Assembly (NCBI GenBank): GCA_964609975.1
Contig: CAZSTR010000002.1
Span: 16,051-80,050 of the forward strand
DNA: 64,000 nucleotides
Direction of reading: 5' to 3'
From: an uncultured Ruminococcus sp.
GTDB taxonomy: Bacteria > Bacillota > Clostridia > Oscillospirales > Acutalibacteraceae
In this document: piece by piece, positions 23,830 through 39,691 of the stretch
Layout of the letters: the number at the start of each line of letters is the position of its first letter
Position numbering within the stretch: position 1 is the first letter of the stretch
The notes under the pieces: generated by a model
The model's database searches: none
Seen by the model: only the letters and a program-made list of their open reading frames with translations
What the model was told of the DNA's origin: nothing
Translations under genes and position numbers: made by a program

Positions 23830-26367
23830 TTACGGCTTTGGACGATAGATAGAATAGAGGTCAAAGCCCACCCCGTCGTCCGGGGTCTTGGGTGGCAGGG
23901 GCGTTTTTGTGTCCTCCGGGGGCGGCAGAAGGATGGCTTCCGGCGTCTGTGCTGTCGGGGCGGTCGGCGTCACAACGGCGGCGTGGCGAACACGCCGATT
24001 GGGGCCGGAAACGACGATGAGATATACCGCCAACAGCACCAGTCCGACGGCGGAAATCCGGGCGCCGGTTTGCAGTCCCGGTGTGGCATAATCGAAGCGG
24101 ACGGAAATGTCCGCGCCGGCGGGACAGGCGACGGCCATGAAGCCCACATTCACCTTGTGAATTTCCGCCGGCTGGCCGTTGACGGTGGCGCTCCAGCCGC
24201 TCTCGTAGGGAACGCTGAAGAAGACCCAGTTTTCTGTGCCTTGGGTCAGGGTGGCGGAGAAGCCGACCTTGTCGGTGGAAAAGGCGGTGACGGCGGAATC
24301 CGCCCGGCGGGCGCAGTCGAGGAAATATTCTGTCTCATCGCAGAACATGGTATAGGGGTCGAAATGGGGCAAGGGAACCGCTTCGGCGTCCTCATCCTCC
24401 ACCACCAGCGCCTTGAGCAACAGGAACTGGCGGCGCTCCTCCGACTGCTCCTCATATTCGCTACGGGTGATATAGCCTGTGTAGGTGAAGCCCATGGGGA
24501 TGAAGCATTCGTTTTCATAAATGGAATATCCCTGCTGGCTGTCATAATAGCGCCAGCCAGGCATGGCGGTTTCTTCATCTACGCAAAAGGCGTCCTCCGG
24601 GTCTTTGTTGTATAGCTGGACATCCCCTGCCTCCGGTACATAGTCGAACAGCCAGCGCACCGATAAAAGACTGCGCAGAGCATAGGTGTCGCTGTTCGGG
24701 CGGGAGGCTACACTGCGGGAAACCCCCACCGAGGAATAAAAATCCATCACCGATCCGGGGACGATGCTGTGGAAGGCCTGGATGGTGGGAAGCTGCCAAT
24801 ACATTCCCTGGTTGTCCATTCCCTTGTGCATATCGGTGCGGCAGAAAATATCCTCGTTTTCCAGCGAAAAATTGCCGCCCCGAATCAGCTTTTCGATGAC
24901 ATAGTCGTCCGGATAGTTGCTGATGGTTTTCCCCATCGCCAGATAGGCCCAACCGAAAAGGAGGGACACCGACGCGCAAACGGCGGTGCACCAGCCGATG
25001 AAGCGGCGGGGGCTTTGGCGCCATTGATAAACCAACAGCCCCGTCAGCGCCAGACAGATGGCGGCGATGAGCACATACAGCCAGAACCAGGCGGGGATTT
25101 TCTCCAGCCCCCAATCCAGCCTTCCGGTTTCCTCGTCGGGGGTCCAGCTTTTGGGCAGTAGGCCGATGACCGCGGCGAAGAAGGCGGTCATGCCGCCGGC
25201 CCAGCCGATGGCTCTCCCCCATTCCACCGGCGGCTGCTGCTCCTCGAAGCAGCGCACGGTGGCCAGTGCCAGCATCAGCACCAGCATATAATACCAACGG
25301 GCATAGTAAATCTGGTTGAACAGCTGGAACATGGCGTTGAGGCCGGGGATGACGGCGCAAAGGAACACCACCACCAGCATCCGCCGCAGCCAGTCGGTGT
25401 GGCGGCGGGATTGAAAATAAGCGATGGCGCCGGTGCAGCCGAAAACCGGGAGCCAGGCGGTCATGGAGGCCCATTTGTTGTTGGCGTCCGGAAAAAAGTT
25501 GGCGCGGGCGGGAAGCTCCGGCGGGAACAGAAAGCTGTGAAGAATGTCATACAGCCGCTGGCCGGTGCCGTAAATCAAAAAGCCGAAGCCCTCCAGGTAT
25601 TGGGTGGAGCGGCTGTTTTGAATTACCGAATAAAAGGAAGGGAGAAGTAAAATTCCGGCGCCGGCCACACCGAGAAGGGCTTGAAGCCACAGGCCGAAGA
25701 AGCCGCGCACGCGATGCTCCCATTCGCCGGAGATGGCTCGCACCAGCCAATAGAGAATGACAAAAAAGACCTGCCCGATGAAGAAATAATAGTTGGACAG
25801 GGCGCTGAGCAGCACTGCAACGGCGAAAAGCCCCCGCCGTCGCTCGGTCATTTGCTGTTCAATGCCCAAAAGGAGGAGGGGAAACCAAATCATGGCTTCG
25901 TGGAAATGGTTGAAAAAGATGTTATAAAAGGAAAAGCCGGAAAAGGCATAAAGCAATCCGGCCACCACCGCCAGCCGGGGCTGTAAAAACCGGCGAGTGT
26001 AGGCATAGGCGGCGAGAGAGGCGCAGGCGATTTTCAGCGCCAGCAACGGCGCCATCAGATAGGGCACCGCCGCCGACGGGAAGGGGAGCGTCAGCCAGAA
26101 AAAGGGACTTCCCAGCAGATAAAAGGAATAGGAGCCGACAAAATTCGCCCCCAAATCCGTCAGCCAACTCCAGCCCAGCCGGCCGTCGCGCACCGCGTCG
26201 TGTGCCAGCTGGTAAAAAGGGATTTGCTGGGCGTTGAAATCGCCGTAATAGATGAAATATCCCCGATTATAGATGACAAAGGGGAGAAACAGCAGCAGAG
26301 CCAGCCCCAGCGGGAGAAAAAAGGCCATTGCCGCCCGGCTTTTCGGTTTTGTTAAGCAGTTTTCCAT
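23830..26367 (-). CDS. YfhO family membrane glycosyltransferase (GT-C-like)
   Basis: 845 aa with >10 TM segments. N-terminus ...FIYYGDFNAQQIPFYQLAHDAV is typical of YfhO. ATG at 26367 follows AAGGAGGGCG. Confidence 0.85.
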   Translation of the reverse strand: MENCLTKPKSRAAMAFFLPLGLALLLFLPFVIYNRGYFIYYGDFNAQQIPFYQLAHDAVRDGRLGWSWLTDLGANFVGSYSFYLLGSPFFWLTLPFPSAAVPYLMAPLLALKIACASLAAYAYTRRFLQPRLAVVAGLLYAFSGFSFYNIFFNHFHEAMIWFPLLLLGIEQQMTERRRGLFAVAVLLSALSNYYFFIGQVFFVILYWLVRAISGEWEHRVRGFFGLWLQALLGVAGAGILLLPSFYSVIQNSRSTQYLEGFGFLIYGTGQRLYDILHSFLFPPELPARANFFPDANNKWASMTAWLPVFGCTGAIAYFQSRRHTDWLRRMLVVVFLCAVIPGLNAMFQLFNQIYYARWYYMLVLMLALATVRCFEEQQPPVEWGRAIGWAGGMTAFFAAVIGLLPKSWTPDEETGRLDWGLEKIPAWFWLYVLIAAICLALTGLLVYQWRQSPRRFIGWCTAVCASVSLLFGWAYLAMGKTISNYPDDYVIEKLIRGGNFSLENEDIFCRTDMHKGMDNQGMYWQLPTIQAFHSIVPGSVMDFYSSVGVSRSVASRPNSDTYALRSLLSVRWLFDYVPEAGDVQLYNKDPEDAFCVDEETAMPGWRYYDSQQGYSIYENECFIPMGFTYTGYITRSEYEEQSEERRQFLLLKALVVEDEDAEAVPLPHFDPYTMFCDETEYFLDCARRADSAVTAFSTDKVGFSATLTQGTENWVFFSVPYESGWSATVNGQPAEIHKVNVGFMAVACPAGADISVRFDYATPGLQTGARISAVGLVLLAVYLIVVSGPNRRVRHAAVVTPTAPTAQTPEAILLPPPEDTKTPLPPKTPDDGVGFDLYSIYRPKP

Positions 26368-26532
26368 GAACGCCCTCCTTGTCCGGTTTGTATAGATGCC
26401 TTCAGTATAGCAGAAACCGCAAAAAAAAGAAAGCCCCTCCGCCGAAAAAATCCGGTTTTCGGAATTCACACAAATTTCACATTCCTATGCTACAATATCC
26501 CGGAACGGGATGTTGCGAAGGGATGAAAAACG

Positions 26533-28800
26533 ATGACAAACGAGAAAAGTGCAATTCGACGGCCAGAGCGGCCGCCGCTTTTTTCCTGCCGCTTGCCAGG
26601 CGGCGTGGTGCTGTCCGCGACGCCGCGGCGTCTGGTGGGCGCGGGTGTTTTTTTTCTGTGTGTGCTGTTGCTGGTTTTGTTGCATAAGGATCGGTTTCTT
26701 GGCGCCGAGGTGACGGCCGGGGGGCTGTTGTTCGGTCTGAGTCTGGCTGCCTGCGTGGTGCTGGGGCTGATGACGGCTGTGCGCTGGGAGCTTCCGCGAA
26801 AGGCGGAGGCGGCGGTGAGCGTGGCGGCGGTGGCGTTGCTGCCGGTGGTGGCGATGACTATGGCGGAATGTCTCAACGGGGTGTTCACCTGGGATTGGAC
26901 GCCCCAGACGCTGATGCTCAATTATATTCTGTATTTTGTTTTCTATGGGCTGGTATATGCCCTTTCCGGCAGCTTTCGGCTGGCCTTTTTGGTGGTGGAT
27001 GCGCTGGTATTTGTGCTGGCGCTGACGAACCATTATGTATACGCCTTTCGCGGCACGCCCTTTGTGCCTATGGATTTGTTCAGCGCCGGCACTGCTGCCA
27101 ATGTGGCGGTGACCTATGATTTCTCCTTTGATTATCAGATTGTGATTGCGATTTTGCTGTTGGTCTTTCTGTCGGTGGCGGCCTTTCGACTGCGGGTGCC
27201 CCGCGGAGACGCGGTGCTGCATATTGCTACGCGGGTGTTTTTTGCCGCCCTGACCTTGTGCATCGTGGGGATTTATGTGTTCACGGACCAATATGCCCAG
27301 GCGGGATTGAAGCCGGATTTCTGGAACCAAAGCCGGGGCTATCGTCGCACCGGTGTGGTGATGAATTTCTGTTTGAACACGAAATATATCCGCTATTCGA
27401 AGCCGGCGGGCTATGATCCGGAGAAGATTTCCTCCATTGTGTACGGCGTGCTGGGGGAAAGCGACAACAGCAGTGTGTCCGAGGCGGAAACGGCGCCGAC
27501 GCCGGAGAAGGCCCCGAACATCATTTGCATCATGAACGAGTCTCTATCGGATTTGAGCGTGCTGGGTGAGGTGCACACGAACGAGGACTATATGCCCTTT
27601 CTCCGTTCTCTGACCGAAAACACGGTGCGCGGGAATTTGTATGTGCCGGTTATCGGCTCCGGTACAAGCAACACGGAATTCGAATTTCTCACCGGGGTGC
27701 CCACCGCCTTTTTCCCGGCGGGGAGCAATGCCTATATGCTGTATGTGAAAAATCCGCTGTATTCGCTAGTGTCCACGCTGGGCGCGCAGGGCTATTCGAA
27801 GCTGGCCTTCCATCCCTATTATTCCAGCGGCTGGAACCGTACGAAGGTGTACAGCTGTCTCGACTTTGACCGCTTTTTCTCCATTTCCTCGGTGATTTCC
27901 TCGGACATTCTCTCCGCCTATCAGTCCAGCGGCTTCGACGCATCGACTCTGGAGAAACTGGTGGAGGCGGCCTATCCCGGTCAGGGAGTGCTGCTGCGCC
28001 GCTATGTCAGCGACAGCTATAACTACCAGCGGGTCATAGATATGTATGAGGGACGGGAGAAGAACACGCCCTTTTTCCTGTTCAATGTCACTATGCAAAA
28101 CCACGGAAGCTATACCGAGCGGGCGGAAAATTTCCGCCAGGAAATCTATATCACCGACGAAAACGGACAAAAGGCAACAAAGGTGAACGCCGCCGGAAGC
28201 ATAGTGGAAAAATATCCGCTGGCAAACCAGTATCTATCGCTGGTGAAGGCCTCCGACGACGCCTTCCGGGAGTTGGTGGAATATTTCTCCGCCCAGGAGG
28301 AGCCGACGGTGATTTGTATGTTCGGCGATCACCAGCCCAGTATTGAAACCGCCTATATCCGAGAGCTGCTGGGAGTGGATTCGCTATATTCGCTGACGCT
28401 GGAGCAGGAACAGCAGCGCTATGTGACCCCCTTCTATATTTGGGCGAACTATGACATTGAGGAGCAGACGGTGGAGCGGTTGAGCAGTAACTATCTGGCC
28501 TCCTATGTGCTTCAGGTGGCGGGGGTGCCCATGACCGATTATAACCGCTATTTGCTGAAGCTGGCGGAGACTCTACCGGTGATTGACACCGCCGGATATA
28601 TTGATGCCGCCGGGAACTATTATAAAAACGGTGAGGAGTCGGACTATTCCGCCCTGCTGGATGGCTATAAAAAGGTGATTTATAATCTGGTGTTTGACGA
28701 GGACGCGAAATGTGAGGACATCTTTTCGTCTTATTTCAGCTCTGCCAGAAATTCGATGCCCGGTCCGGGAGTGGCTCTGGCCCGGATGGTTCCCCGGTGA
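26533..28800 (+). CDS. LtaS/GacH-like sulfatase-family phosphotransferase with extended N-terminal membrane domain
   Basis: ~325-aa polytopic N-terminal region, then a sulfatase-type domain starting NIICIMNESLSD, with GSGTSNTEFEFLTG and MFGDHQP blocks. Confidence 0.8.
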   Translation: MTNEKSAIRRPERPPLFSCRLPGGVVLSATPRRLVGAGVFFLCVLLLVLLHKDRFLGAEVTAGGLLFGLSLAACVVLGLMTAVRWELPRKAEAAVSVAAVALLPVVAMTMAECLNGVFTWDWTPQTLMLNYILYFVFYGLVYALSGSFRLAFLVVDALVFVLALTNHYVYAFRGTPFVPMDLFSAGTAANVAVTYDFSFDYQIVIAILLLVFLSVAAFRLRVPRGDAVLHIATRVFFAALTLCIVGIYVFTDQYAQAGLKPDFWNQSRGYRRTGVVMNFCLNTKYIRYSKPAGYDPEKISSIVYGVLGESDNSSVSEAETAPTPEKAPNIICIMNESLSDLSVLGEVHTNEDYMPFLRSLTENTVRGNLYVPVIGSGTSNTEFEFLTGVPTAFFPAGSNAYMLYVKNPLYSLVSTLGAQGYSKLAFHPYYSSGWNRTKVYSCLDFDRFFSISSVISSDILSAYQSSGFDASTLEKLVEAAYPGQGVLLRRYVSDSYNYQRVIDMYEGREKNTPFFLFNVTMQNHGSYTERAENFRQEIYITDENGQKATKVNAAGSIVEKYPLANQYLSLVKASDDAFRELVEYFSAQEEPTVICMFGDHQPSIETAYIRELLGVDSLYSLTLEQEQQRYVTPFYIWANYDIEEQTVERLSSNYLASYVLQVAGVPMTDYNRYLLKLAETLPVIDTAGYIDAAGNYYKNGEESDYSALLDGYKKVIYNLVFDEDAKCEDIFSSYFSSARNSMPGPGVALARMVPR

Positions 28801-29954
28801 GCCTTGACGATGCTGCGCGCCAGGGAGAGTCCGACGCCGAAGCCGCCGGAGGAGCGGGCGGTGTCGGCGCGATAGAATCGGTCGAAAAACCGAGGAATCT
28901 TTTCCGGCTCCAGCCCGGCGCAGGCGTTGGCCGTGCGCAGAAGGACGCCCCTTTTCTCCCGGATCAGCCCAAGAAAAATCGGGGTGTCCGGGTCGGCATA
29001 GCGAATGGCGTTGTCCAGCAGGATGGACACCAGCTGGCACAGGGCATATTCGTCGCCGACATAGGTGATTTGCGGAGCGATGGACAGCTCCAGCGGATGT
29101 CCGGCGCACAGCGCAAAATCCCGAAAGGATTCGGCGGTTTCCTCCACCGCCTTGCTGAGCGGGAAAGGGCGCGAATGTAAGAGGGGGTCTCCTTCGTCCA
29201 GCCGGGACAGGGTGACCAGCTGGTTTACCAGCTCTCCCAGCTTCTCGGTCTGGCCTCGCGCCTTGTCGATCCATTTTTGTGGCCCGGTTTCCATTTCCAG
29301 CACCTTGAGGCTGGTGGCGATGACGGTGATGGGGGTTTTCAGCTCATGGCTGGCGTCGGTGATGAACTGCTTTTGCTGTTCGATGCTTTTCACCACCGGG
29401 TCAATGGCTCGGCGGGAAAAGAGGGAGACCGCAACCAGAACCAACAGCACACACACGCCGATAGCCACCGCCGTCAGCAGCGCGAGGCTGACAAGCCCCC
29501 GCAGGCTGTCGTGACAGTCGAGAAAAATCGCCATATAGCGGTCGCCGCCGGAGCACACCACCAGAAATTTGTAGCCGTCGGCAAAGCCATAGCCTGGGCC
29601 GTGCTTTTTCGCGACGGCGAGATAGTCGCCGACGGTGTCCTCGGTGACGGCGGCGATGCTGGACAGGTCGGCGCGAACCAGTGTGCCGTCCTGCATATAG
29701 CGGAGCACAAAATAGCGGGTGGTATAGGGGGTTTCCGGGGAAAAGGCGCCCTGCCGTCCGCCCTCCGGGTGTCCGGACGGCGGTGCGGAGGGGGCCTTTC
29801 CCTGATTTTGATAAATGGCCTCCAGCATCCGGTTTTGTTCGGCGTTGACGGAAAGAAGGTTGGCGGTGTTGAGAATCAGGCCCAGCAGAACTAGCACCGC
29901 CGACACGGAAATCGCCGCCAGACGGATGAAGCGCAGACGAAGCTTTTTAATCAT
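28731..29954 (-). CDS. sensor histidine kinase
   Basis: Two TM segments, H-box FITDASHELKTPITVI, N-box LLDNAIRYA, and G-boxes DRFYRAD...GGFGVGLSLA. ATG at 29954 overlaps the regulator stop by 8 nt. Confidence 0.9.
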   Translation of the reverse strand: MIKKLRLRFIRLAAISVSAVLVLLGLILNTANLLSVNAEQNRMLEAIYQNQGKAPSAPPSGHPEGGRQGAFSPETPYTTRYFVLRYMQDGTLVRADLSSIAAVTEDTVGDYLAVAKKHGPGYGFADGYKFLVVCSGGDRYMAIFLDCHDSLRGLVSLALLTAVAIGVCVLLVLVAVSLFSRRAIDPVVKSIEQQKQFITDASHELKTPITVIATSLKVLEMETGPQKWIDKARGQTEKLGELVNQLVTLSRLDEGDPLLHSRPFPLSKAVEETAESFRDFALCAGHPLELSIAPQITYVGDEYALCQLVSILLDNAIRYADPDTPIFLGLIREKRGVLLRTANACAGLEPEKIPRFFDRFYRADTARSSGGFGVGLSLARSIVKAHRGTIRARATPGPGIEFLAELK

Positions 29955-30624
29955 GGTGCGCCTCCAGCCGATAGCCCAGTCCCCGGTTGGCCTGGATGGT
30001 GACGGGAGAGCCGATGGCGCGCAGCTTTTTGCGCAAATTGGAGATATGCACCCAAACCACATGAATTTCCGCCTCGCCGTTGAAGCCCCAAACCCGTTCC
30101 AAAATTCGCTCGGCGGACAGCAATACCTGCGGGGAGCGCAAAAACAGCTCCATCACCTGAAATTCCCGGCCGCTGAGCTGTATTTGTCCGTTCTCGCAGG
30201 CCAAAATCCCGGTTCCCGGATCCAGAGACAGCCCATCAAAGGTGAGCACAGTGGGGCGGTATTCGCCGCCACGGCGGAGCATGGCTCGCACCCGGCAAAT
30301 CAGCTCGTCCGGCGCAAAGGGCTTCGGTAGATAATCGTCGGCGCCGGCGTTGAAGCCAAGGATGCGGTCGGCCTTTTGGGAGCGGGCGGTGAGCAGCATG
30401 GCCGGCGTGCGTACCCCCTCCTCCCGCAGACAGCGAAGTACCTCCAGCCCATCCATGCCGGGCATCATCACATCCAGCACCAGCGCATCATATTCCCCCA
30501 CGCGGGCATAGGCATAGGCGGCGCTTCCGTCGTGGACGGTGTCCACCGAAAATTGGTTTTTTTCGAAAAAAACCGTTAGCGCCTCGGCTAAATCCTGCTC
30601 GTCCTCGGCAATCAGCAAGCGCAT
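29947..30624 (-). CDS. OmpR/PhoB-family response regulator
   Basis: Receiver MRLLIAEDEQDLAEAL...LVLDVMMPGMDG...KADRILGFNAGADDYLPKPF, plus a winged-helix output domain. RBS GGGGAGGGAA. Confidence 0.9.
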   Translation of the reverse strand: MRLLIAEDEQDLAEALTVFFEKNQFSVDTVHDGSAAYAYARVGEYDALVLDVMMPGMDGLEVLRCLREEGVRTPAMLLTARSQKADRILGFNAGADDYLPKPFAPDELICRVRAMLRRGGEYRPTVLTFDGLSLDPGTGILACENGQIQLSGREFQVMELFLRSPQVLLSAERILERVWGFNGEAEIHVVWVHISNLRKKLRAIGSPVTIQANRGLGYRLEAHHD

Positions 30625-30689
30625 GGTGTTCCCTCCCCGGTTGTTTTTCCTCAGTATAGCACAAAGGGACGGCGAAGCGCAAGGGGCGT

Positions 30690-31352
30690 TTACAGGGCGT
30701 CCCGTACCAGCTCCCGGCTGCACAGCACATTCAGGTTTCCGTTGCGACAGCGGATTTCATCCAGAAAGGTCTTCGGTATGGTGGGCGTTTTTAGCGTGAT
30801 GCGGTATTGCAGCTCATACAGTGTGCCCATGTTGGCGGTTTTCACCTTTTCCAGTGTATAGTCGCTGGTGTATTGCTCCAGCAAATCGTCCAATAGCTCC
30901 TCATAGTCCAGATTTTCGGGGATGGTGACCCGCAAAATGCGGTCGAGGGGACTTTGGTCGCCGAAGCCGGTGAGGGTAATGGCCAGCATCACCCCGGCGA
31001 CGATCACGAAAAACAGAGCCGCCAGCCCCACATAGCCCATGCCAGTGGCCAGACCAATGGCCATGGCCAGAAAAATCACGCCGATTTCCCGCGCGTTTCC
31101 GGGGACGGAGCGAAAGCGCACAAGGCTGAAGGCTCCGGCCACGGCCACGCCAGCGCCCACATTCCCATTGACTAGCATGATGACGGTTTGCACGATGGCG
31201 GGAAGCACCGTCAGCGCCATGACGAAGCTGCGGGAGTGCTTTTCCCGGAATATTCCCACCAGCGCCGTGCCGAAGCCCAAAAGCAGGGACACGCCAGTGC
31301 ACAGCAGAAAGGTGGGCAGGGTGATGGTGGTTTCAATGATGGACTCAAACAT
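30690..31352 (-). CDS. DUF4956 domain-containing membrane protein
   Basis: 4-5 TM helices followed by a soluble C-terminal domain. Conserved block AFSLVRFRSVPGNAREIGVIFLAMAIGLATG. ATG at 31352 lies 8 nt after AGGAGG and overlaps the VTC gene stop by 8 nt. Confidence 0.75.
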   Translation of the reverse strand: MFESIIETTITLPTFLLCTGVSLLLGFGTALVGIFREKHSRSFVMALTVLPAIVQTVIMLVNGNVGAGVAVAGAFSLVRFRSVPGNAREIGVIFLAMAIGLATGMGYVGLAALFFVIVAGVMLAITLTGFGDQSPLDRILRVTIPENLDYEELLDDLLEQYTSDYTLEKVKTANMGTLYELQYRITLKTPTIPKTFLDEIRCRNGNLNVLCSRELVRDAL

Positions 31353-32118
31353 GAGACAGACCTCCTTCAAAATGTTGCTGGGGCAAAATGAATGTGCGAT
31401 AACAGGTGCCGTATTTCGAAAAGGACGTGGGATATAGCGCCAGCTCCGACAAAATTCGACTCAGCCAAAGGGGACAAACGCCAGGCAGCTTCAGTTCCAT
31501 GAGAATTCGGTCGTCCTCCGGCAAAAGCGGCGCGCCCGCATCCCCCCGGCATAAATCCAGCCCGGTTGTGCGCCAGCGCAAACGGGTGTCGAAGGTGACG
31601 CGCAGCTCCGGCTGTTCTGTCCCGACCAGAGCGATGCGGTCGTAAGCGATGAACGCGCGGGGCGCGGCGGCATACACCTGCTGAAAGCGGGCGATTTCCC
31701 GGCCGATTTGCGCTCCGGCCTGCGGCGGAAGCGCTACATATTCCGAGGCGGCGGATTTTCCGCCGCCCGCCGCGGCGAGGAAGGCGGCGGCCTGGGCGGG
31801 GGTGCCCTGGATGCGCCGCTTGTATACGATGCTGTCGAATTTTTTCTTCAGCTCCAGAAACACCGGCCCCTCCGGGGAGGGCGTGCCATAGCTGCGCACC
31901 CGGAGCTTTTCCTTGTATACAGGCTTTTCGATGGAGGCGCGGATGAGCCGCCAGTCGGGGGTGTCATAATAAATGTTGCAGATGGCGGTTTTTCCGTAGG
32001 TGTCCTCCTGCATATAGGGGGCGAGGCGTTCTCGCAGGGCGCAATATTGGGCGGGGGTGCAAAAATATTTCTTTTCGTACCGTTGAAAGGAAAACTGAAC
32101 GGCTTTGGCTTTGGCCAT
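31345..32118 (-). CDS. VTC-domain (polyphosphate-polymerase-like, CYTH/TTM fold) protein
   Basis: 257 aa. N-terminal FQRYEKKYF strand (ExK-type tunnel motif), plus ICNIYYDTPDWRLIR and KLRVRSYG blocks typical of bacterial VTC-domain proteins. RBS GGAGGGGA. Confidence 0.75.
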   Translation of the reverse strand: MAKAKAVQFSFQRYEKKYFCTPAQYCALRERLAPYMQEDTYGKTAICNIYYDTPDWRLIRASIEKPVYKEKLRVRSYGTPSPEGPVFLELKKKFDSIVYKRRIQGTPAQAAAFLAAAGGGKSAASEYVALPPQAGAQIGREIARFQQVYAAAPRAFIAYDRIALVGTEQPELRVTFDTRLRWRTTGLDLCRGDAGAPLLPEDDRILMELKLPGVCPLWLSRILSELALYPTSFSKYGTCYRTFILPQQHFEGGLSHV

Positions 32119-32278
32119 GAAATCCCCTCCTGTTTTTCTGTATTATCGCGCCGCCACCTAAATTCTGCCTAAAGAAGCGAAAAAAGCCCGGCTACGGCCG
32201 GAAAACGACGCTTGCTTTAGGCAGATTTTAGCTTTGTTGGGCAAAATAAAGAATAATAGATGAAGGAGGGCATGACCT

Positions 32279-34171
32279 ATGACAAAAAATCAAGCCTTTT
32301 GGGCCTTTTTGGGCGTTTTCGCTGTGGGGGCAAGCCTGTTGGGCGGCTGTGGCGCACCGGGAAAAACGCCGGCGGGAGGATACAGCGGCAAGGTGGAGGA
32401 GAACGGCGAGGAAATCCGGCTGGAAAACGCCGATGGCTCGGCGATTGTCTCCTGCGTCGATGGCGCTATCCGTCTGGAGGGGGCGGATGGGCGAACGGTG
32501 ACGCTGGCGGCGGACGGCACGGTGAGCGAAAAGGAAACGCCCGTGGGCGCGGAAACGGTACAGGGGCTGACCGAAGGGGTGACGACCATTACGAAGGGCG
32601 GCACCTATACCCTGGCGGGCACGGTGGCGGACGGCCGTGTTGTGGTGAATGCACCCGGCGAGAAGGTGCATCTGGTGCTGGCCGGGGTGCGGCTTGCTTG
32701 CTCCTATGGCAGTCCGCTGTATGTATACAAGGCGGCGCAGGTGACGGTGGAGCTAGTGGAGGGCACTGCCAATTATCTGTCCGACGGAGCGAGCTATACC
32801 TTCTCCGACAGCTTTTCCTCTAAGGCGGAGGATGAGCCGAACGCCTGCATTTATTCCAAGGCGGATTTGATCCTTTGCGGAAAGGGGGCGCTGACGGTGG
32901 AGGCGGCGTATCATAACGGCATCACCGGGAAGGACACTCTTACCGTGGAGGACGCCGCCGTGACGGTGTATGCGGTCAACCATGGCATCACCGGGAAGGA
33001 CCGTCTGACGGCGAAGGGCGCCCGCTTCACCGTGGTGGCCGGCGGAGATGCACTGCGCTCCACAAAGGAGGGGGATGAAAACTGGGGCTTCGTGTCGCTG
33101 ACCGATTGCCGGCTGGCGCTGGTGGCCGGCGAGGATGGGGTGCAGGCGGAAACGGTGCTGACCCTGTCCGGCGGAAGCGGCGCAGTGACCGCCGGCGGCG
33201 GCGTAGGCGGCACGGTGGGGGTGGACGCCAGCGCCAAGGGGCTGAAGGCCGGAACGGAACTGAAGCTAACCGGCGGCGCTTATGCTTTCAACTGCTGTGA
33301 TGATGCCATTCATTCCAATGGGAATGCGACCCTGTCCGATGGGAATTATACGGTGCGCACAGGGGACGACGGCTTGCACGCGGATGAAAGTGCGCTGGTT
33401 TCCGGAGGTGTTTTACGGGTTTTGCAAAGCTATGAGGGGCTGGAGGGGAAAACCGTGACCGTCTCCGGTGGCACTTTGTCGCTGAACGCCGACGATGATG
33501 GAATCAACGCCGCCGGGGGCGCCGACGGAAGCGGCTTCGGTGGGCGGATGGATACCTTCGGCGGAAGCTTGGATTGCTCGCTGACGGTTTCCGGCGGAAA
33601 GGTGGAGATTTGCGCCGGAGGCGATGGGCTGGATTCCAATGGAAGTCTGACGGTTTCCGGCGGCGAGATATATGTCAGCGGCCCGACCGACAACGGCAAC
33701 GGCGCGCTGGACTGTGACGGCGAGGCGACCGTCACCGGCGGCTCGGTGGTGGCTGTTGGCTCCTCCGGTATGGCAGAAAATTTCGGCTCAAATTCTACTC
33801 AAGGGAGTATTTTGCTGAATTATTCCTCTTGGTTGACCGGCGAGGTGACGGTGAAGAACTCTGCCGGGACGGTGCTTTTGCAATATACGCCGCAAAAGCA
33901 GTATAGCAGCGTAATGGTCAGCTGTCCCCAGCTGAAGAAGGGCGAGGTCTATACAGTGGAGGCCGGCGGGGAGATCCAGATGGTGACGCTGTCCAGCCTG
34001 ATTTACGGCTCCGGCGGCATGGGCATGGGCGGCCGCCCCGGCGGCAACCTGGGCGGAGCCCCTGGCGCGGACGGTGGCGGCGGGCGCGGCGACCGTCCGG
34101 GCGGCGGCTTTGGCGGTGGTGGCTTCGGCGGTAAAACCCCGCCTGCAAAGCCGGAGGGCAACGCCATGTGA
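32279..34171 (+). CDS. Cthe_2159-type carbohydrate-binding beta-helix lipoprotein with Gly/Arg-rich tail
   Basis: Lipoprotein signal ...GASLLGGCGAPGK. Recurring DDAIHSNG / GDDGLHADE / DDDGINAAGG / GDGLDSNGSL turns. C-terminus GGMGMGGRPGGNLGGAPGADGGGGRGDRPGGGFGGGGFGG. RBS GAAGGAGGG lies 8 nt upstream. Confidence 0.7.
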   Translation: MTKNQAFWAFLGVFAVGASLLGGCGAPGKTPAGGYSGKVEENGEEIRLENADGSAIVSCVDGAIRLEGADGRTVTLAADGTVSEKETPVGAETVQGLTEGVTTITKGGTYTLAGTVADGRVVVNAPGEKVHLVLAGVRLACSYGSPLYVYKAAQVTVELVEGTANYLSDGASYTFSDSFSSKAEDEPNACIYSKADLILCGKGALTVEAAYHNGITGKDTLTVEDAAVTVYAVNHGITGKDRLTAKGARFTVVAGGDALRSTKEGDENWGFVSLTDCRLALVAGEDGVQAETVLTLSGGSGAVTAGGGVGGTVGVDASAKGLKAGTELKLTGGAYAFNCCDDAIHSNGNATLSDGNYTVRTGDDGLHADESALVSGGVLRVLQSYEGLEGKTVTVSGGTLSLNADDDGINAAGGADGSGFGGRMDTFGGSLDCSLTVSGGKVEICAGGDGLDSNGSLTVSGGEIYVSGPTDNGNGALDCDGEATVTGGSVVAVGSSGMAENFGSNSTQGSILLNYSSWLTGEVTVKNSAGTVLLQYTPQKQYSSVMVSCPQLKKGEVYTVEAGGEIQMVTLSSLIYGSGGMGMGGRPGGNLGGAPGADGGGGRGDRPGGGFGGGGFGGKTPPAKPEGNAM

Positions 34172-34228
34172 TGCTCCGCTTTTGTTCCTTGCTTATTTTC
34201 GGCGTTGGGGATGCTTGAGCAAAAAAGA

Positions 34229-34265
34229 ACCCGCCGGTGCATCCATAACGGATGCACCGGCGGGT
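34229..34265. terminator. bidirectional terminator between the beta-helix lipoprotein gene and pckG
   Basis: 16-bp perfect stem ACCCGCCGGTGCATCC / GGATGCACCGGCGGGT, with an A-run upstream and T-rich sequence downstream. Confidence 0.85.
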
Positions 34266-34294
34266 GTTTGCTTTATATACTTTTGCGTGTTTGC

Positions 34295-36073
34295 TTAGGC
34301 CAGATTTTTCTTCAGGGTTTCCAGCTGGTCGCGCAACTCGGCGGGCAGCTTGTCGCCGAATTTCTTGTAGTGCTCCTCGATCTCAGCGGCTTCCTTGACC
34401 CACACATCGTGATCCACGGTGAGGATGCCCTTGAGGGTGTTCATGTCCATATCCAGATCGGTCAAGTCGATATCCTCCGGCTTCGGCACATAGCCGATGG
34501 CGGTTTCGGTGGCGTCCGCCTTGCCCTCGCAACGATCCACGATCCAGTTCAGCACGCGCATATTGTCGCCGAAGCCCGGCCAGATGAAGTTTCCATCGTC
34601 ATCGGTGCGGAACCAGTTGACGTTGAAAATTTTAGGAGCCTTGTCGCCCAGCTTCTTGCCCATATCCAGCCAGTGCTGGAAATAGTCGCCCATGTGATAG
34701 CCGCAGAAGGGCAGCATCGCCATGGGATCCCGCCGCACAACGCCCACGGCGCCGGCCGCGGCCGCGGTGGTCTCGCTGGCCATGGCGGAGCCGATGAACA
34801 CGCCGTTTTCCCAGTCGCGGGACTGATAGACCAGCGGTGCGCACTTGGCGCGACGGCCGCCGAAGATGATGGCGGAGATGGGCACGCCGGCGCCCTTGTC
34901 GAATTCGGGAGAGATGCAGGGGCAGTTCTGCGCCGGAGCGGTGAAGCGGGAGTTGGGATGAGCTGCATAGGTGCTCTTGTCCTGCTTGTCGAATTTAGAA
35001 GCATCCCATTTGTTGCCCTTCCACTCGATGGCGTTCTGGGGCAGCTCCTTGTTTAGACCCTCCCACCACACGGTGTTGTCGTCCAGGTTCAGCGCCACAT
35101 TGGTGAAGATGGTGTTCTTCTTGGTGGACTCCAGAGCATTGAAGTTGGAGTGGGCGTTGGTGCCGGGCGCCACGCCGAAGAAGCCGTTCTCCGGGTTGAT
35201 GGCGTACAGACGGCCATCCTCGCCGATGCGCATCCAGGCGATGTCATCGCCCACGGTCCAAATCTTATAGCCCTTCTTACGCAGATACTCCGGCGGAATC
35301 AGCATGGCCAGGTTGGTCTTGCCGCAGGCGGAGGGGAAGGCCGCCGCTACATAATGGATTTCGCCCTGGGGATTTTCCAGACCCAAAATCAGCATATGCT
35401 CGGCCATCCAGCCCTCTTTCCAGCCCTGATAGGAGGCGATGCGCAGGGCGAAGCACTTTTTGCCCAGCAGCACGTTGCCGCCGTAGGCGGAGTTGACGGA
35501 GATGATGGCGTTATCCTCCGGGAACTGGCAGATATACCGCTTCTCCGGGTCGATGTCGCAGGAGGCATGGAAGCCACGCACCCAGTCGTTGCTGTCGCCC
35601 AGCGTGTCCAGAACCTTCTGGCCCACGCGGGTCATGATAGCCATATTCAGCACCACATAGATCGAATCGGTGATTTCGATGCCGATCTTCGCCAGAGGCG
35701 AGCCGATGGGCCCCATGGAGAAGGGAATCACATACATGGTGCGGCCCTTATAGCTGCCACGGGCGATGTCATACAGACGCTTGTACATTTCCTGGGGATC
35801 GCACCAGTGGTTGGTGGGGCCGGCGTTCTCCTCCTTGCGAGAGCAGATGAAGGTACGATCCTCCACCCGCGCCACATCGTTGGGCTTCGTGCGATGGAGA
35901 TAGCAGCCGGGCAACCTCTCCTCGTTCAGCTTGATCATTTCGCCGGTCTCGACCGCAGTTTTGCGCAGCTGATCCAGCTGCTCCTCGCTGCCGTCGATCC
36001 ACATCACCTGATCGGGGCAGACCAGCGCCTTCTTTTCCTCGATCCAGTCGAGGACGGTCTTGTTGTTGGTCAT
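34295..36073 (-). CDS. pckG: phosphoenolpyruvate carboxykinase (GTP)
   Basis: 592 aa. Blocks FPSACGKTNLAML (kinase-1a P-loop), WMAEHMLILG, NWFR and FLWPGFGDN-like (FIWPGFGDNMRVL) are diagnostic of GTP-PEPCK. ATG at 36073 follows GGAAAGGAG. Confidence 0.95.
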   Translation of the reverse strand: MTNNKTVLDWIEEKKALVCPDQVMWIDGSEEQLDQLRKTAVETGEMIKLNEERLPGCYLHRTKPNDVARVEDRTFICSRKEENAGPTNHWCDPQEMYKRLYDIARGSYKGRTMYVIPFSMGPIGSPLAKIGIEITDSIYVVLNMAIMTRVGQKVLDTLGDSNDWVRGFHASCDIDPEKRYICQFPEDNAIISVNSAYGGNVLLGKKCFALRIASYQGWKEGWMAEHMLILGLENPQGEIHYVAAAFPSACGKTNLAMLIPPEYLRKKGYKIWTVGDDIAWMRIGEDGRLYAINPENGFFGVAPGTNAHSNFNALESTKKNTIFTNVALNLDDNTVWWEGLNKELPQNAIEWKGNKWDASKFDKQDKSTYAAHPNSRFTAPAQNCPCISPEFDKGAGVPISAIIFGGRRAKCAPLVYQSRDWENGVFIGSAMASETTAAAAGAVGVVRRDPMAMLPFCGYHMGDYFQHWLDMGKKLGDKAPKIFNVNWFRTDDDGNFIWPGFGDNMRVLNWIVDRCEGKADATETAIGYVPKPEDIDLTDLDMDMNTLKGILTVDHDVWVKEAAEIEEHYKKFGDKLPAELRDQLETLKKNLA

Positions 36074-36100
36074 ACTTAGAGCTCCTTTCCCATTCGGGTG

Positions 36101-36177
36101 TATCATTTCGGGAAATGATAAAAAATATCATTTCTTCGACGCATATCATTATACTCTTAAAGCGTCAAGCTTTGCAA
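36101..36177 (-). promoter_or_regulatory. pckG promoter and leader with four TATCATT(T) repeat units
   Basis: On the minus strand, TTGCAA (36172-36177), 18 nt, TATAAT (36148-36153). TATCATTT occurs at 36101-36108 and 36126-36133, its complement AAATGATA at 36113-36120, and a 7/8 copy at 36144-36150 overlaps the -10. Confidence 0.55.
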
Positions 36178-36286
36178 CCCCTAATTGTGAATTTTTTCAT
36201 AAATTTTGCCGAAAGTGAAAAATTCGTTGCTTCTGCCCGAAAAAAACGAAGGGATCGCGAAAAAATGCGGCTTTTTTTCTTTGGAT

Positions 36287-36315
36287 TTGACAACCGCGCC
36301 CTTTTGTGCTATATA
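36287..36315 (+). promoter_or_regulatory. promoter in front of the polysaccharide locus
   Basis: TTGACA (36287-36292), 17 nt, extended -10 TGC-TATATA (36307-36315). Confidence 0.6.
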
Positions 36316-36374
36316 TAACGGAGAAGACCTGATGGTGTTGCCGTTGAAAAAGAGGGCGAGAGGATGGGTGGCGT

Positions 36375-37289
36375 ATGCGAATTGTGGCGATTGTGGTCAC
36401 CTATAACCGTTTGCCCATGCTGCGGCGCTGTCTCGCCGCGCTGGAGGCACAGCAGGGCGCTTTTGCGGATATTCTGGTTGTGGACAACCATTCCACCGAC
36501 GGAACCGGTCGGGCGCTGGCGCCGTTGGCGGAGGCTGGCCGTCTGTGCTATTATGACACGGGGGCCAATCTGGGCGGCGCCGGTGGCTTCTCCTTCGGGA
36601 TGAAGCGGGCTGTGGAGGCCGGATATACCCATCTTTGGGTGATGGATGATGATTGCATCCCGGAGCCGATGGCTCTTGCGGCGCTGGTGGCGGCAGATCG
36701 CCGTCTGGCGGGGGAATATGGCTTTTTATCCGGTCGCGCTCTCTGGAAGGACGGCTCCCTTTGCCGCATGAACATACAAAAGACCACCCTGCGCTCCCGG
36801 CTGGATTCTATGGAGCGGTCTCTGGAGCCGGTGATGATGGCCACCTTCGTGTCGGCCTTTTTTCCGGCGGAGCGGGTGCGCGCGGTGGGGCTCCCTATAA
36901 AGGAGTTTTTCATCTGGGCGGACGATTTGGAGTATACGCGCCGCCTGTCCCGGCTCTATCCCTGCTATGCGGTGGCCGATTGCCGGGTGCTTCATGCTAT
37001 GGAAAGCAACCGCCGGGTGGACATTGCCACCGACAGCCCTGCGCGGCTGGAGCGGTATCGCTATTTGTATCGCAATGAGGTGTTTCTCTATCGCCGAGAG
37101 GGCGCGTGGGGGCTTGTGTATTTTGCGGCGCGCCTGCTTTGCCATTGCGGGCGGGTGGTGGTCAGCCACGCTCCCCGGAAGGGACAGCGCTTAAAAACGG
37201 TGGTTTTCTCGGCCCTTTCCGGTCTCCGGTTTCGGCCGACGGTGGAGTTCCCTGCTCCCCGGATAGAAACGGATAAATCGAACGAATGA
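36375..37289 (+). CDS. glycosyltransferase family 2 protein (soluble, WbbL/rhamnosyltransferase-like)
   Basis: IVAIVVTYNRLPMLRRCLAAL..., VVDNHSTDGT, GANLGGAGGF and WVMDDDC (DxD) blocks. No TM segments. Confidence 0.8.
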   Translation: MRIVAIVVTYNRLPMLRRCLAALEAQQGAFADILVVDNHSTDGTGRALAPLAEAGRLCYYDTGANLGGAGGFSFGMKRAVEAGYTHLWVMDDDCIPEPMALAALVAADRRLAGEYGFLSGRALWKDGSLCRMNIQKTTLRSRLDSMERSLEPVMMATFVSAFFPAERVRAVGLPIKEFFIWADDLEYTRRLSRLYPCYAVADCRVLHAMESNRRVDIATDSPARLERYRYLYRNEVFLYRREGAWGLVYFAARLLCHCGRVVVSHAPRKGQRLKTVVFSALSGLRFRPTVEFPAPRIETDKSNE

Positions 37290-37341
37290 AGGCGTACCCC
37301 TTTTTGCCGGAGAAAGACTTCTCCGGCCGGAGGATTTGTAT

Positions 37342-38793
37342 ATGCAGACAACCATTCGGAAAAACTATTTTTATAATGTTCTGTTGCAGCTGATTTCGCT
37401 GCTTCTTCCCTTCATCACAACGCCGTATGTGGCGCGGGCGCTGACCCCCGCCGGCGTCGGAACCTATAGCTATATCAGCTCTATTGCCACGAACTTTTCG
37501 TTGCTGGCTGCGCTGGGAACTTCTTCTTATGGCCTGCGGGAGCTGGCGCGCTGTCGGGATGACCGCTACCGCTCGGTGAGGCTGTTTCGGGAGCTGAGCC
37601 TGCTTCGCTTTGCTTCGACGGCGGCGGCGCTGGCGCTTTATTGGGTGTTTGTGGCGGCCTTCGGCCAGGATTGGCGGCTGTATTTGGCCAGCTGTCCGGT
37701 GATTTTGGCCGCCGGAACGGATTGCAGCTGGTATTTTCAGGCGAAGGAGAATTTCCGCCTTTTGATGCTACGCAATCTGCTGGTGAAGCTGGCGGCGACG
37801 GTGTGTATTCTGGTGTTTGTGCGCCAGCCGGAGGATTTGTGGCTGTATCTTTTGATTCAGGGGGGCAGTCTGCTGCTGTCCAATGCGTTTTTGTCCCTGC
37901 GGCTGTTGCGGCGTATGCCGTTGATTCCCTGGAGAGAACTGACCTTTCGCCGCCATTTCCGGGAAACGCTGGCTTATTTCATTCCGACGGTGGCCACCTC
38001 GGTGTATACGGTGATGGATCGGACGATGATCGGCCTTATCACGCGGGATATGAACCAGAACGGCTATTATGACCAGGCGAGCCGCCTTGTGCATATGCTG
38101 ATGACCCTCATCACCTCCCTTCATGTGGTGATGGGCGTGCGCACCTCCTATCTCTTCGGCCAAAACCGCAAGCGGGAGATTCGCCGCCATGTATACAGCT
38201 CCTTCCGGTTTACCTATTTGCTTTCCTTCCCCATGGTGGCGGGGCTGATAGCCTGCGTGCCCCATTTCGTGCCCTGGTTTTTCGGTGAGGGCTATGATGG
38301 GGTGGCGCCCCTGCTGGTGGGGCTGACACCTCTGCTGGTGATTATCGGCACAAGCCATGTGCTGGGCACGCTGTATCTTACCCCCTGCGGCCAACGCGCC
38401 CGTAGCAATCGGGCAATCATCGGGGGTGCGGTGTGTAACTTTCTGCTGAATCTGCTGTTGATTCCCCGGCGGTCTGCCCAGGGGGCGGTGATCGCCTCCG
38501 TGGTGGCGGAGCTGTTGATTTCGGTGGCGTATCTGTATTATAGCCGCCGTTTTATCCGCGTGTCGGTGGTGGTGGGGCTGATGCTCCGCTATGGCCTGCT
38601 GGCGGGGGTCATGTTTGTGCCGGTGTGGCTTATCGGCCGCGCCTGCCATCCCGGCTTTTGGGGCTTGCTGCTGCAAATCGGCGTGGGAATTCTGATTTAC
38701 AGCGTGGAGCTGATTTTGGTGCGTGACCCGGTGTGGCAGGAGCTTTGTGGCCTGCTGCGCCGCCGCGGAAGGAGGGCGTCGGATGCAGGCTGA
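37342..38793 (+). CDS. oligosaccharide flippase (Wzx/MOP family), copy 1
   Basis: ~483 aa with ~12-14 TM. N-terminus NYFYNVLLQLISLLLPFITTPYVARALTPAGVGTYSY is typical of polysaccharide flippases. ATG at 37342 lies 7 nt after GGAGGA. Confidence 0.85.
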   Translation: MQTTIRKNYFYNVLLQLISLLLPFITTPYVARALTPAGVGTYSYISSIATNFSLLAALGTSSYGLRELARCRDDRYRSVRLFRELSLLRFASTAAALALYWVFVAAFGQDWRLYLASCPVILAAGTDCSWYFQAKENFRLLMLRNLLVKLAATVCILVFVRQPEDLWLYLLIQGGSLLLSNAFLSLRLLRRMPLIPWRELTFRRHFRETLAYFIPTVATSVYTVMDRTMIGLITRDMNQNGYYDQASRLVHMLMTLITSLHVVMGVRTSYLFGQNRKREIRRHVYSSFRFTYLLSFPMVAGLIACVPHFVPWFFGEGYDGVAPLLVGLTPLLVIIGTSHVLGTLYLTPCGQRARSNRAIIGGAVCNFLLNLLLIPRRSAQGAVIASVVAELLISVAYLYYSRRFIRVSVVVGLMLRYGLLAGVMFVPVWLIGRACHPGFWGLLLQIGVGILIYSVELILVRDPVWQELCGLLRRRGRRASDAG

Positions 38794-39691
38794 TGCTTCC
38801 TTTTTGGCAGCGGAGGTGCGCTGTGGCTATCCGGTTTCGGCGCAGATAAAGCGGGTTTGGGCGGTGGAGCTGGAGCTGTTGGCGGAGCTACAACGGGTGT
38901 GCCGGGAGGCGGGGCTTGTGTGCTTTGCCGGCGGCGGCACGCTGTTGGGTGCGGTGCGGCACGGGGGCTTTATCCCCTGGGACGACGACATAGATATGTG
39001 TATGCTTCGGCCGGACTATGACCGGCTGTTGGCCATCGGGCCGACGGCGTTTCGCCCGCCCTTTTTCTTTCAAACGCCGTCTACCGACCGGCGGTATAGC
39101 CGGGGACATATCCAGCTTCGCTATGACGGAACGACGGCTATGCGCCCGTCGGAGGGGACGAAATTTCCCTTTCATCAGGGTATATTCATCGACATTTTTC
39201 CGCTGGACCGGGTGCCGGATGACCCGAAGCGCTTTGCTGCTTTGCGTCGGCGGCTGATGCTGTGTGACCGGTTGCTCAACGCTTCGGTGCGCTATCCGGC
39301 CAGCGAGCATAAGACTCTGTGGAAAACGGCGGCGCACGCACTGCTGTTTCCCCTGCCATGGAGGGCGGTGCGCCGGCGGCTGGAGACGCTGGCGCGCACG
39401 GGCGGCTGTGCCGCGGACAGCCGGGTGGCGCCGCTGACCTTTTTGCCGGGCGAGGACGCCCAGCTTTTTCCGGCCGCCTGCTTTGCGTCGATGGAGACGG
39501 TGCCCTTCGAATATCTGCAAATCCCCATCCCGACAGGGTATGACACCCTTTTGCACATCCAATACGGCGATTATAGAACGCCTCGCCGGGCGCCCAGTCT
39601 GCACGGCGAGCTGTGGCTGGACCCGGATTTGGATTTTCGTATAGCCCGCCAAAGGGCGAAAAAGTCCATCAATAAACACAGAGGAGATTAA
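38783..39691 (+). CDS. LicD family phosphotransferase, copy 1
   Basis: LicD signature ...CFAGGGTLLGAVRHGGFIPWDDDIDMCMLRPDY. Start overlaps the flippase stop. Confidence 0.85.
   Translation: MQADASFLAAEVRCGYPVSAQIKRVWAVELELLAELQRVCREAGLVCFAGGGTLLGAVRHGGFIPWDDDIDMCMLRPDYDRLLAIGPTAFRPPFFFQTPSTDRRYSRGHIQLRYDGTTAMRPSEGTKFPFHQGIFIDIFPLDRVPDDPKRFAALRRRLMLCDRLLNASVRYPASEHKTLWKTAAHALLFPLPWRAVRRRLETLARTGGCAADSRVAPLTFLPGEDAQLFPAACFASMETVPFEYLQIPIPTGYDTLLHIQYGDYRTPRRAPSLHGELWLDPDLDFRIARQRAKKSINKHRGD

Follow-up and report, generated by a model that had tools for sequence, protein, structure and literature searches.

Organisation of the locus

The 64,000-nt stretch of DNA analysed here (the window; positions refer to it unless another locus is named) comes from an uncultured Ruminococcus sp. 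and contains a self-contained unit of five genes. Four lie on the minus strand and encode, in order, a VTC protein, a membrane protein of the DUF4956 family, a response regulator and a sensor histidine kinase. The fifth diverges from them and encodes a Cthe_2159-family beta-helix lipoprotein (Table 1). Our interpretation, which we hold tentatively and at a probability a little short of even, is that the unit specifies a signal-induced, membrane-associated polyphosphate (polyP) polymerase of the Vtc4 type whose product is linked to the cell surface. The gene structure, homologies, residue conservation, co-occurrence and shared regulator boxes on which it builds are direct observations.

The map of open reading frames (ORFs) agrees with gene calls made independently on three public contigs, where the encoded proteins are identical. 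The VTC and DUF4956 genes overlap by 8 nt (junction ATGTTTGA), with a GGAGG 8 nt upstream, and the response regulator and histidine kinase genes likewise overlap by 8 nt (junction ATGATTAA), with a GGAGG just upstream. A divergent spacer of 160 nt separates the VTC operon from the lipoprotein gene. The five genes, both overlaps and the spacer are as the original prediction described them, and its assignments of VTC, DUF4956, Cthe_2159 and two-component domains are borne out by Pfam hidden Markov model (HMM) matches above threshold. Its description of the four minus-strand genes as one unit holds for their packing. A gap of 65 nt between the DUF4956 and response regulator genes contains the extended -10-like sequence TGcTATACT, and the four genes are therefore perhaps not strictly a single transcript. 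It may serve the two-component genes as a basal promoter that does not depend on the induced one discussed below.

A stand-alone tunnel enzyme of the Vtc4 type

The VTC protein matches Pfam PF09359 along its full length (E 4.8e-38; 131.5 bits against a cut-off of 23), with residues 12-243 covering profile positions 1-234 of 235. VTC is its sole Pfam domain, and it is without an SPX domain, a signal peptide or a transmembrane segment. When 1.84 billion representative proteins were searched, the family comprised at least 4,855 clusters (50% identity) at E <= 1e-3, the best 150 of which are mostly ~230-260 aa long and free of added domains. A single VTC sequence retrieved nothing relevant among PDB chains and a profile was required; one built from 84 homologues finds yeast Vtc4 (3G3Q) at E 7.5e-15. 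The AlphaFold2 (AF2) model of the protein (pLDDT 91.5) has eight long strands and a C-terminal helix at residues 235-253. Its best Foldseek match is Vtc4 (3G3R; TM 0.71, E 1.7e-13), the top 9 matches are all Vtc4, and Vtc3/Vtc2 and then, lower, CYTH-type tunnel enzymes follow. The predicted fold is an eight-stranded closed beta-tunnel with a C-terminal plug helix, nearest to Vtc4.

The residues that matter in Vtc4 are defined by experiment. Mutation of K200, R264, R266, K281, Y359, R361, S457 or K458 lowers polyP, E426 holds Mn2+, and K458 is the only listed residue that is altered (to Ile/Leu) in the inactive Vtc2/3 (10.1101/2023.01.27.525886). In the HMM alignment, K200, R264, R266, K281, Y359 and R361 correspond to K17, R73, R75, K91, Y159 and R161 of the window protein. 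For the C-terminal part, Vtc4 420-481 from the PDB was aligned by hhalign with a bacterial C-terminal profile; E426, S457 and K458 then correspond to E208, S234 and K235, with the bacterial motifs LMELK and SFSKYG opposite LEVK and FSKF of Vtc4. This second alignment is backed by the full-length Pfam match and by the fold match. Across the 84 homologues the catalytic equivalents are invariant, save Y159 (70/84) and S234 (83/84), and K235, the Lys458 equivalent in SFSKYG, is Lys in 84/84. The tunnel residues, which the original prediction had named beforehand as a test of its reading, are present and invariant or nearly so.

In hydrolytic TTMs, an acidic patch occupies the place of the basic residues of Vtc4 (Martinez et al., PMC4641920). 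Three positions of this patch were mapped in the VTC protein: R13 and K210 are basic as in Vtc4, at two sites for which hydrolytic TTMs have Glu (PMC4641920), while E15 is acidic. Judged by its sequence, the protein appears to be a stand-alone Vtc4-type tunnel enzyme that is Vtc4-like in all mutation-tested residues, with one departure (E15). That it synthesises polyP from ATP we consider slightly favoured.

A membrane partner related to MgtC

The DUF4956 protein matches Pfam PF16316 (E 7.8e-16) and comprises five predicted helices, an invariant loop RFRSxPG (79-85) and a C-terminal beta-alpha-beta-beta-alpha domain. Arg/Lys residues at 35-40 and 79-88 point, by the positive-inside rule, to an N-out/C-in topology in which the RFRSxPG loop and the C-terminal domain would be cytoplasmic.

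By profile comparison, DUF4956 is a distant relative of the MgtC/SapB/YhiD family. The Pfam MgtC profile (PF02308) matches 29/41 DUF4956 homologues weakly (best E 0.019), with other families matching <=8 each; the window protein itself scores 9.4 bits (E 1.8), below the gathering threshold of 31.4. An alignment of MgtC-family proteins (E. coli yhiD and eight plasmid genes) is matched by hhalign with a probability of 81% (E 1.3e-5) over 196 columns that span both domains. The score is 39.5, against <=18.5 for one reversed and 20 column-shuffled controls. One close DUF4956 homologue bears the JGI label YhiD. The architecture agrees, with a membrane domain of ~130 aa followed by an alpha/beta domain of ~85 aa, and the Gly-rich motif of MgtC, GxGxxGAG...A.IG...G.G.Y, aligns with GAGVAVAGAF...AMAIGLATGMGY of DUF4956. 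What sets DUF4956 apart from MgtC, beyond its scores below the Pfam threshold, is its own invariant RFRSxPG loop and its constant pairing with a VTC gene in loci that were found with the VTC profile. The DUF4956 profile found nothing against the single YhiD sequence by hhalign and nothing among PDB sequences, and Foldseek on the structure model gave no significant match, only small ACT/ferredoxin-like domains, with an MgtC C-domain at rank 47. Since the structure model is of poor quality and lacks significant neighbours, the homology rests on sequence profiles.

Conservation of the module across genomes

Neighbourhoods were compared in the closest 80 loci found with the VTC profile, all from Clostridia, and counts are over 79 of them. 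DUF4956 lies directly 3' of VTC in 75/79 loci, 40 of them with the identical 8-nt overlap, and the pair is adjacent in 4/4 distant loci from a plasmid collection (these had no annotation and were annotated in this analysis). Both the split, translationally coupled pair and the co-occurrence beyond chance that the original prediction called for are thus found. A Cthe_2159 homologue is present in 50/79 loci, either divergent upstream or directly after DUF4956 on the same strand. A response regulator and histidine kinase pair is present in ~40/79, downstream as in the window or upstream, which fits the dedicated sensor pair that had been proposed. Clustering of all neighbouring ORFs found no further gene in more than 12 loci, the remainder being shadow ORFs. 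A related species carries the same five genes within wholly different flanks.

The third partner varies at greater distance. CotH occurs in the Enterococcus and Nonomuraea loci (Table 1), and neither the window nor the 80 Clostridia loci contain any. The CotH partners have exported N-termini (signal or lipobox), as do nearly all Cthe_2159 partners. In some loci without Cthe_2159, a SigI-like sigma factor and an RsgI-like anti-sigma factor adjoin the VTC-DUF4956 pair; in others there is a metallo-beta-lactamase-fold protein, with a lipoprotein-type N-terminus in the one example inspected (L065). These genes look like alternative regulators and exported partners. The distant locus of Acetoanaerobium noterae lies between two P-type cation ATPases. 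The constant core is the cytoplasmic tunnel enzyme with DUF4956, to which most loci add an exported protein and a regulator responsive to the outside. The module is widespread in gut Firmicutes and very common, and the locus in the window is an unremarkable example of it.

Shared regulator boxes at divergent promoters

The two-component genes encode, by Pfam, a receiver/winged-helix regulator and a HisKA/HATPase_c kinase, a pair of the OmpR/PhoB type. The kinase has two transmembrane segments around an extracytoplasmic loop of ~130 aa. For the regulator, no NCBIfam equivalog reaches its cut-off, the best being RppA, TctD, MtrA and PhoB.

A 17-nt inverted repeat in the intergenic spacer consists of two boxes, each made of two 7-mers with an 11-bp period (CTTTAGG-N4-nTTTAGG). 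These are the only matches in 64 kb, where 0.15 would be expected. Among related loci, 20/76 have a box ~55 nt upstream of VTC, with just 2 matches elsewhere in those loci, and the density is 0.77 per kb upstream of VTC against 0.001 per kb elsewhere (~770-fold). The loci with a box are mostly those whose response regulator is 63-70% identical to that of the window. In 13 aligned loci with the same divergent layout the box arms are conserved, while the spacer between the boxes varies in sequence and length. All 25 box instances, in both directions, have a -10-like hexamer exactly 9 nt after the box. It reads TAnnnT in 23/25, the exceptions being the two hexamers of the window, GATAAT and CAAAAT.

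In the pho-box geometry of PhoB, the box of OmpR/PhoB activators replaces the -35 element. We regard the intergenic palindrome as a regulatory site, a pair of PhoB-style tandem boxes, one for each divergent promoter. With boxes at both promoters, the lipoprotein gene and the VTC-DUF4956-response regulator-histidine kinase operon would therefore form one regulon, and the cognate response regulator is very probably the protein that binds the boxes. These shared boxes, together with co-occurrence in shuffled gene orders, support the functional link to the lipoprotein that had been predicted.

The exported lipoprotein

The lipoprotein matches Pfam PF14262 (E 2.2e-79; 266.9 bits), and its residues 87-315 match the solved chain of Cthe_2159 (4PEU/4PHB; E 4e-31). 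Its signal, read from the sequence and not called by a dedicated predictor, is MTKNQAFWAFLGVFAVGASLLGG-C24, ending ...ASLLGG-C24, and the lipobox Cys24 is kept in 26/30 homologues. The beta-helix spans ~87-560 and is followed by a Gly/Met/Pro/Arg-rich tail at ~575-630. Gly makes up 43% of the last 60 residues, which include 5 Arg/Lys, in keeping with the Gly/Arg tail originally described. Similar Gly/Met/Pro-rich tails (GGMGG-type, often ending in Arg/Lys) occur in 27/45 Cthe_2159 partners, and similar segments lie inside CotH partners of unrelated loci (Table 1). Conservation across 30 homologues falls on Gly and Asp/Asn/Glu/His and on just one Lys. Conserved positions include D363-D364-x2-H367-x-D369, E386/E389, D406-D407-x2-N410 and GGDGLDSNG at 447-455.

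Proposed mechanism and rival explanations

We propose that an extracytoplasmic cue is detected by the histidine kinase, which then phosphorylates the response regulator of the OmpR/PhoB type. This would bind the two inverted tandem boxes, CTTTAGG-N4-nTTTAGG, which would stand in for the -35 elements of both divergent promoters. Binding would induce the lipoprotein gene and also VTC-DUF4956-response regulator-histidine kinase, the latter by positive autoregulation. The soluble VTC protein would then use the gamma-phosphate of ATP, together with a divalent metal, to polymerise inorganic polyP. Translational coupling would produce it in step with the five-helix, MgtC-like DUF4956 protein, and it would dock on the cytoplasmic face of that protein at the RFRSxPG loop and C-terminal alpha/beta domain. 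Physical coupling of the two proteins is likely. The polymer would be made at the membrane and, under this mechanism, most likely handed to the outer face, where the beta-helix lipoprotein of Ca-binding type would hold or use it. Elsewhere an exported CotH kinase would take the place of the lipoprotein, and possibly, in one locus only, a metallo-beta-lactamase-fold lipoprotein.

Several observations weigh against parts of this mechanism. In the enzyme, the alignment of E426, S457 and K458 is weak when it stands alone (hhalign E 1e-3, probability 22%), and Vtc4 was not retrieved by a profile restricted to the C-terminal third. Vtc4 has Thr198 at the position of the invariant Glu E15, which restores half of the ExExK motif of hydrolytic TTMs, and four invariant basic residues (K69, K71, K93 and R101) have no Vtc4 counterpart. 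The helices of DUF4956 have no conserved basic residues, its outer loops are of only 3 residues, and its AF2 model is of low confidence (pLDDT 64; shallow alignment). The original prediction cast DUF4956 as the counterpart of the eukaryotic VTC channel, which is the three-helix DUF202 domain. DUF202 (PF02656) has no match in the VTC or DUF4956 protein, and its matches among DUF4956 homologues are noise (4/41, best E 1.4). Because DUF202 yields only noise, DUF4956 is judged unrelated to that channel domain, and this part of the prediction falls. The nearest relatives of DUF4956, the MgtC proteins, are known as regulators and not as channels, and we know of no demonstrated channel activity in the MgtC/SapB/YhiD family. 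The conserved surface of the lipoprotein suggests an acidic, metal-binding, pectate-lyase-like protein of Ca-binding type and no basic polyanion groove. The polyanion-binding role first assigned to it is not borne out, and polyP binding, if any, would therefore be cation-bridged or through the Gly/Arg tail. Lastly, the literature that was searched holds no measured activity for any bacterial VTC protein. Of the synthesise-and-export machine envisaged at the outset, synthesis is plausible from the residues; export of the polymer across the membrane, suggested by analogy and by the extracytoplasmic third partner, is rather doubtful. A fuller version is unlikely as a whole: a PPK-independent Vtc4-type polyP synthase in bacteria whose MgtC-like partner passes the growing chain through the cytoplasmic membrane, so that Gram-positive gut bacteria acquire an inducible surface layer of polyP that is held through Ca2+ by the beta-helix lipoprotein, or used elsewhere by exported CotH kinases.

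PolyP might instead be made on the cytoplasmic face without export. DUF4956 would then be an MgtC-like anchor or regulator (of Mg2+, Pi or ATP), the lipoprotein a separate cation-binding envelope protein, and the regulon a response to cation or phosphate stress. The MgtC likeness along the full length of DUF4956, its tiny outer loops and its lack of conserved basic residues in the helices all suit this explanation, as do the Asp/Asn ladder and RTX-like GGDGLDSNG motif of the lipoprotein and the position of the Acetoanaerobium locus between two cation ATPases. We nonetheless rate it as unlikely. In every case examined, the recurrent third partner lies outside the cytoplasm, whether it is Cthe_2159 or, in two distant loci, CotH, and its gene often follows DUF4956 directly in the same operon; this would be difficult to account for if nothing linked the two sides of the membrane. 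Moreover, MgtC-family biology, known mainly from one Salmonella protein, is a weak guide.

A different chemistry is also conceivable, in which the tunnel enzyme hydrolyses tri- or polyphosphate or nucleoside triphosphates, or transfers phosphate or pyrophosphate to an acceptor held by DUF4956 (a lipid carrier or cell-wall glycopolymer), the product being used outside by the beta-helix protein or CotH. E15 keeps hydrolase or other transferase chemistry in play, since it restores half of ExExK and, in hydrolytic TTMs, the acidic-patch position at which it stands serves the second, catalytic metal. A cardiolipin-synthase-like gene comes after DUF4956 in one locus. AtTTM3 has the tunnel centre of Vtc4 yet is a tripolyphosphatase (PMC4641920), and residue conservation alone therefore does not fix the chemistry. 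Against this stand the basic R13 and K210 at two of the mapped acidic-patch positions, the invariant equivalent of Lys458, a residue critical for the polymerase and dispensable for tripolyphosphatase activity (PMC4641920), and the fact that the best sequence and fold neighbours are Vtc4 and not CYTH hydrolases. We consider such chemistry quite improbable. As for the genes being neighbours by chance and the palindrome an RNA structure or terminator, the spacer does fold well as RNA (z -5 to -6), with a terminator-like hairpin on the minus strand. Rfam has no family in 28000-36500, the inner GC hairpin and the spacer around it are not conserved in related loci, and conservation is confined to the arms, which are tandem 7-mers at a constant 9 nt from the -10 hexamers; an RNA reading of the palindrome was rejected on these last grounds. 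Co-occurrence across 79 + 4 loci with shuffled gene order, together with box enrichment and the fixed box-to-hexamer spacing, effectively refutes chance and RNA structure alike.

Relation to known systems

The eukaryotic VTC complex (Vtc4/Vtc3 or Vtc2/Vtc1; 3G3Q, 7YTJ, 8I6V) shares with the bacterial module the catalytic family, the predicted fold and, by alignment, all experimentally defined catalytic residues including Lys458, and both pair a catalytic domain with a polytopic membrane partner. The bacterial enzyme differs as a 257-aa stand-alone tunnel domain without SPX or a fused transmembrane domain, with E15 in place of Thr198 and four extra invariant basic residues. Its DUF4956 partner shares no homology with the DUF202 channel domain. 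A two-component system provides control here, inositol pyrophosphate/SPX there, and the product would be destined for the cell surface rather than the vacuole.

The gene association of VTC with DUF4956 was already noted in the literature (2010, 2019/2020), with no function assigned there. Whitfield et al. (10.1101/768473) listed cotH, a poly-phosphate polymerase gene, DUF4956 and DUF4832 as a set of accessory genes next to the pel loci of Gram-positive bacteria. This set has the same VTC and DUF4956 core with an exported third protein. In NELoc-2 of C. perfringens, VTC genes are each followed by a gene annotated 'tubulin/FtsZ' and then CotH (PMC2879425). That arrangement looks similar, the 'tubulin/FtsZ' genes standing where DUF4956 stands elsewhere, a likeness of position alone. 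In the window, by contrast, the third protein is a Cthe_2159 lipoprotein and not CotH, the module has its own two-component system, and it does not lie beside pel genes. The boxes resemble PhoB/pho-box class II activation in having two 7-bp direct repeats with an 11-bp period in the -35 region, ~9-10 bp upstream of the -10 element, and in the proposed autoregulation of an operon by its own OmpR/PhoB-family regulator. They differ from the pho box in the half-site CTTTAGG and in serving divergent promoters as two inverted boxes. Cthe_2159 of Clostridium thermocellum (4PEU/4PHB) is a direct homologue of the window protein, with Asp-rich beta-helix rungs. Unlike it, the window protein is a lipoprotein of roughly double the length with a Gly/Met/Arg tail; the window protein is also linked genetically to VTC-DUF4956.

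In the searched literature, bacterial VTC/DUF4956 genes appear in gene lists only, including transcriptome tables, and no biochemical work on the module was found, as the original prediction had supposed. An intact Vtc4 active site in bacteria, the relationship to MgtC, the interchangeable exported partners and the regulator boxes were likewise not found there. A VTC gene of C. thermocellum is mutated in ethanol-adapted lines (PMC10503014), and a 2025 review treats VTC as a eukaryote-type enzyme (PMC12526157).

The value of these observations lies in the module and not in this one locus. PolyP synthesis in bacteria is attributed to PPK1/PPK2, and the VTC protein, if active, would add a second bacterial polyP synthase beside them. 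In our framing, it would also bear on the route of polyP to the bacterial surface and on possible host effects of extracellular polyP from gut commensals. The link to MgtC offers a handle on a virulence-associated family of unclear molecular function. Were export to prove true, it would be the first molecular activity for the membrane domain of the MgtC superfamily. The conserved regulator boxes provide a ready reporter for the inducing signal.

Genomic surroundings

The coordinates of all features are collected in Table 1.

Table 1. Features of the window and of the other loci discussed (aa, amino acids; promoter elements are putative)
Feature	Sequence	Positions	Strand	Length	Basis or remark
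YfhO-family glycosyltransferase-like protein	window	23830-26469	-	879 aa	adjoins LtaS-like gene
LtaS-like sulfatase-family membrane protein	window	26533-28800	+	755 aa	3' end overlaps that of the histidine kinase gene by 70 nt
Sensor histidine kinase	window	28731-29954	-	407 aa	ORF map; Pfam HisKA and HATPase_c
Response regulator, OmpR/PhoB family	window	29947-30624	-	225 aa	Pfam Response_reg and Trans_reg_C
Extended -10-like TGcTATACT	window	30653-30661	-		read from sequence; putative
DUF4956 membrane protein	window	30690-31352	-	220 aa	Pfam PF16316
VTC protein, predicted polyP polymerase catalytic subunit	window	31345-32118	-	257 aa	Pfam PF09359
Divergent spacer	window	32119-32278		160 nt	between VTC operon and lipoprotein gene
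-10-like GATAAT, VTC operon promoter	window	32142-32147	-		promoter scan; 9 nt downstream of box
Regulator box toward VTC operon, CTTTAGG-cagA-ATTTAGG	window	32157-32174	-		sequence scan
GC hairpin CCCGGCTACGGCCGGA	window	32187-32202	.		in 40-nt spacer between boxes; T run follows on minus strand
Regulator box toward lipoprotein gene, CTTTAGG-cagA-TTTTAGC	window	32215-32232	+		sequence scan
-10-like CAAAAT (weak), lipoprotein promoter	window	32242-32247	+		9 nt after box; putative
Cthe_2159-family beta-helix lipoprotein	window	32279-34171	+	630 aa	Pfam PF14262
Gly/Met/Pro-rich tail of lipoprotein	window	33990-34171
Terminator hairpin, strong, bidirectional	window	34229-34265	.		16-17 bp stem, 12 GC pairs, T runs on both strands
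GTP-type phosphoenolpyruvate carboxykinase (PEPCK)	window	34295-36106			convergent on lipoprotein gene
Cell-wall/capsular glycan locus	window	36375-44279 and onward	+
VTC-DUF4956, then Cthe_2159	Paenibacillus				response regulator and histidine kinase pair adjacent
VTC-DUF4956, then response regulator, histidine kinase, CotH lipoprotein	Enterococcus (E. faecalis plasmid)
VTC-DUF4956, then CotH	Nonomuraea
Response regulator-histidine kinase-VTC-DUF4956, then cardiolipin-synthase-like PLD gene	Acetoanaerobium noterae (L095)	1830-13903
Alternative partners	L035	11447-12942
Alternative partners	L065	11409-12020 and 9107-9973
Alternative partners	L029	11351-12283
Gly/Met/Pro-rich segment in CotH partner	L097	11686-13110
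Gly/Met/Pro-rich segment in CotH partner	L096	9483-11060

The LtaS-like gene converges on the histidine kinase gene, and the YfhO-family gene lies next to it. At the other end, the bidirectional terminator is common to the lipoprotein gene and the convergent PEPCK gene. Neither the LtaS-like gene nor the YfhO gene is conserved beside the VTC module in other genomes. The LtaS-like, YfhO and PEPCK genes are absent from related loci and were rejected as partners; since a related species carries the same five genes in other flanks, these neighbours are incidental. Beyond PEPCK lies the cell-wall or capsular glycan locus, with genes for a GT2 glycosyltransferase, a Wzx-type flippase, LicD and a 472-aa membrane protein and RmlA/RmlB/RmlD-like genes. 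GC content falls to 43-45% at 50-54 kb, against ~57% elsewhere in the window, which suggests an acquired cassette.

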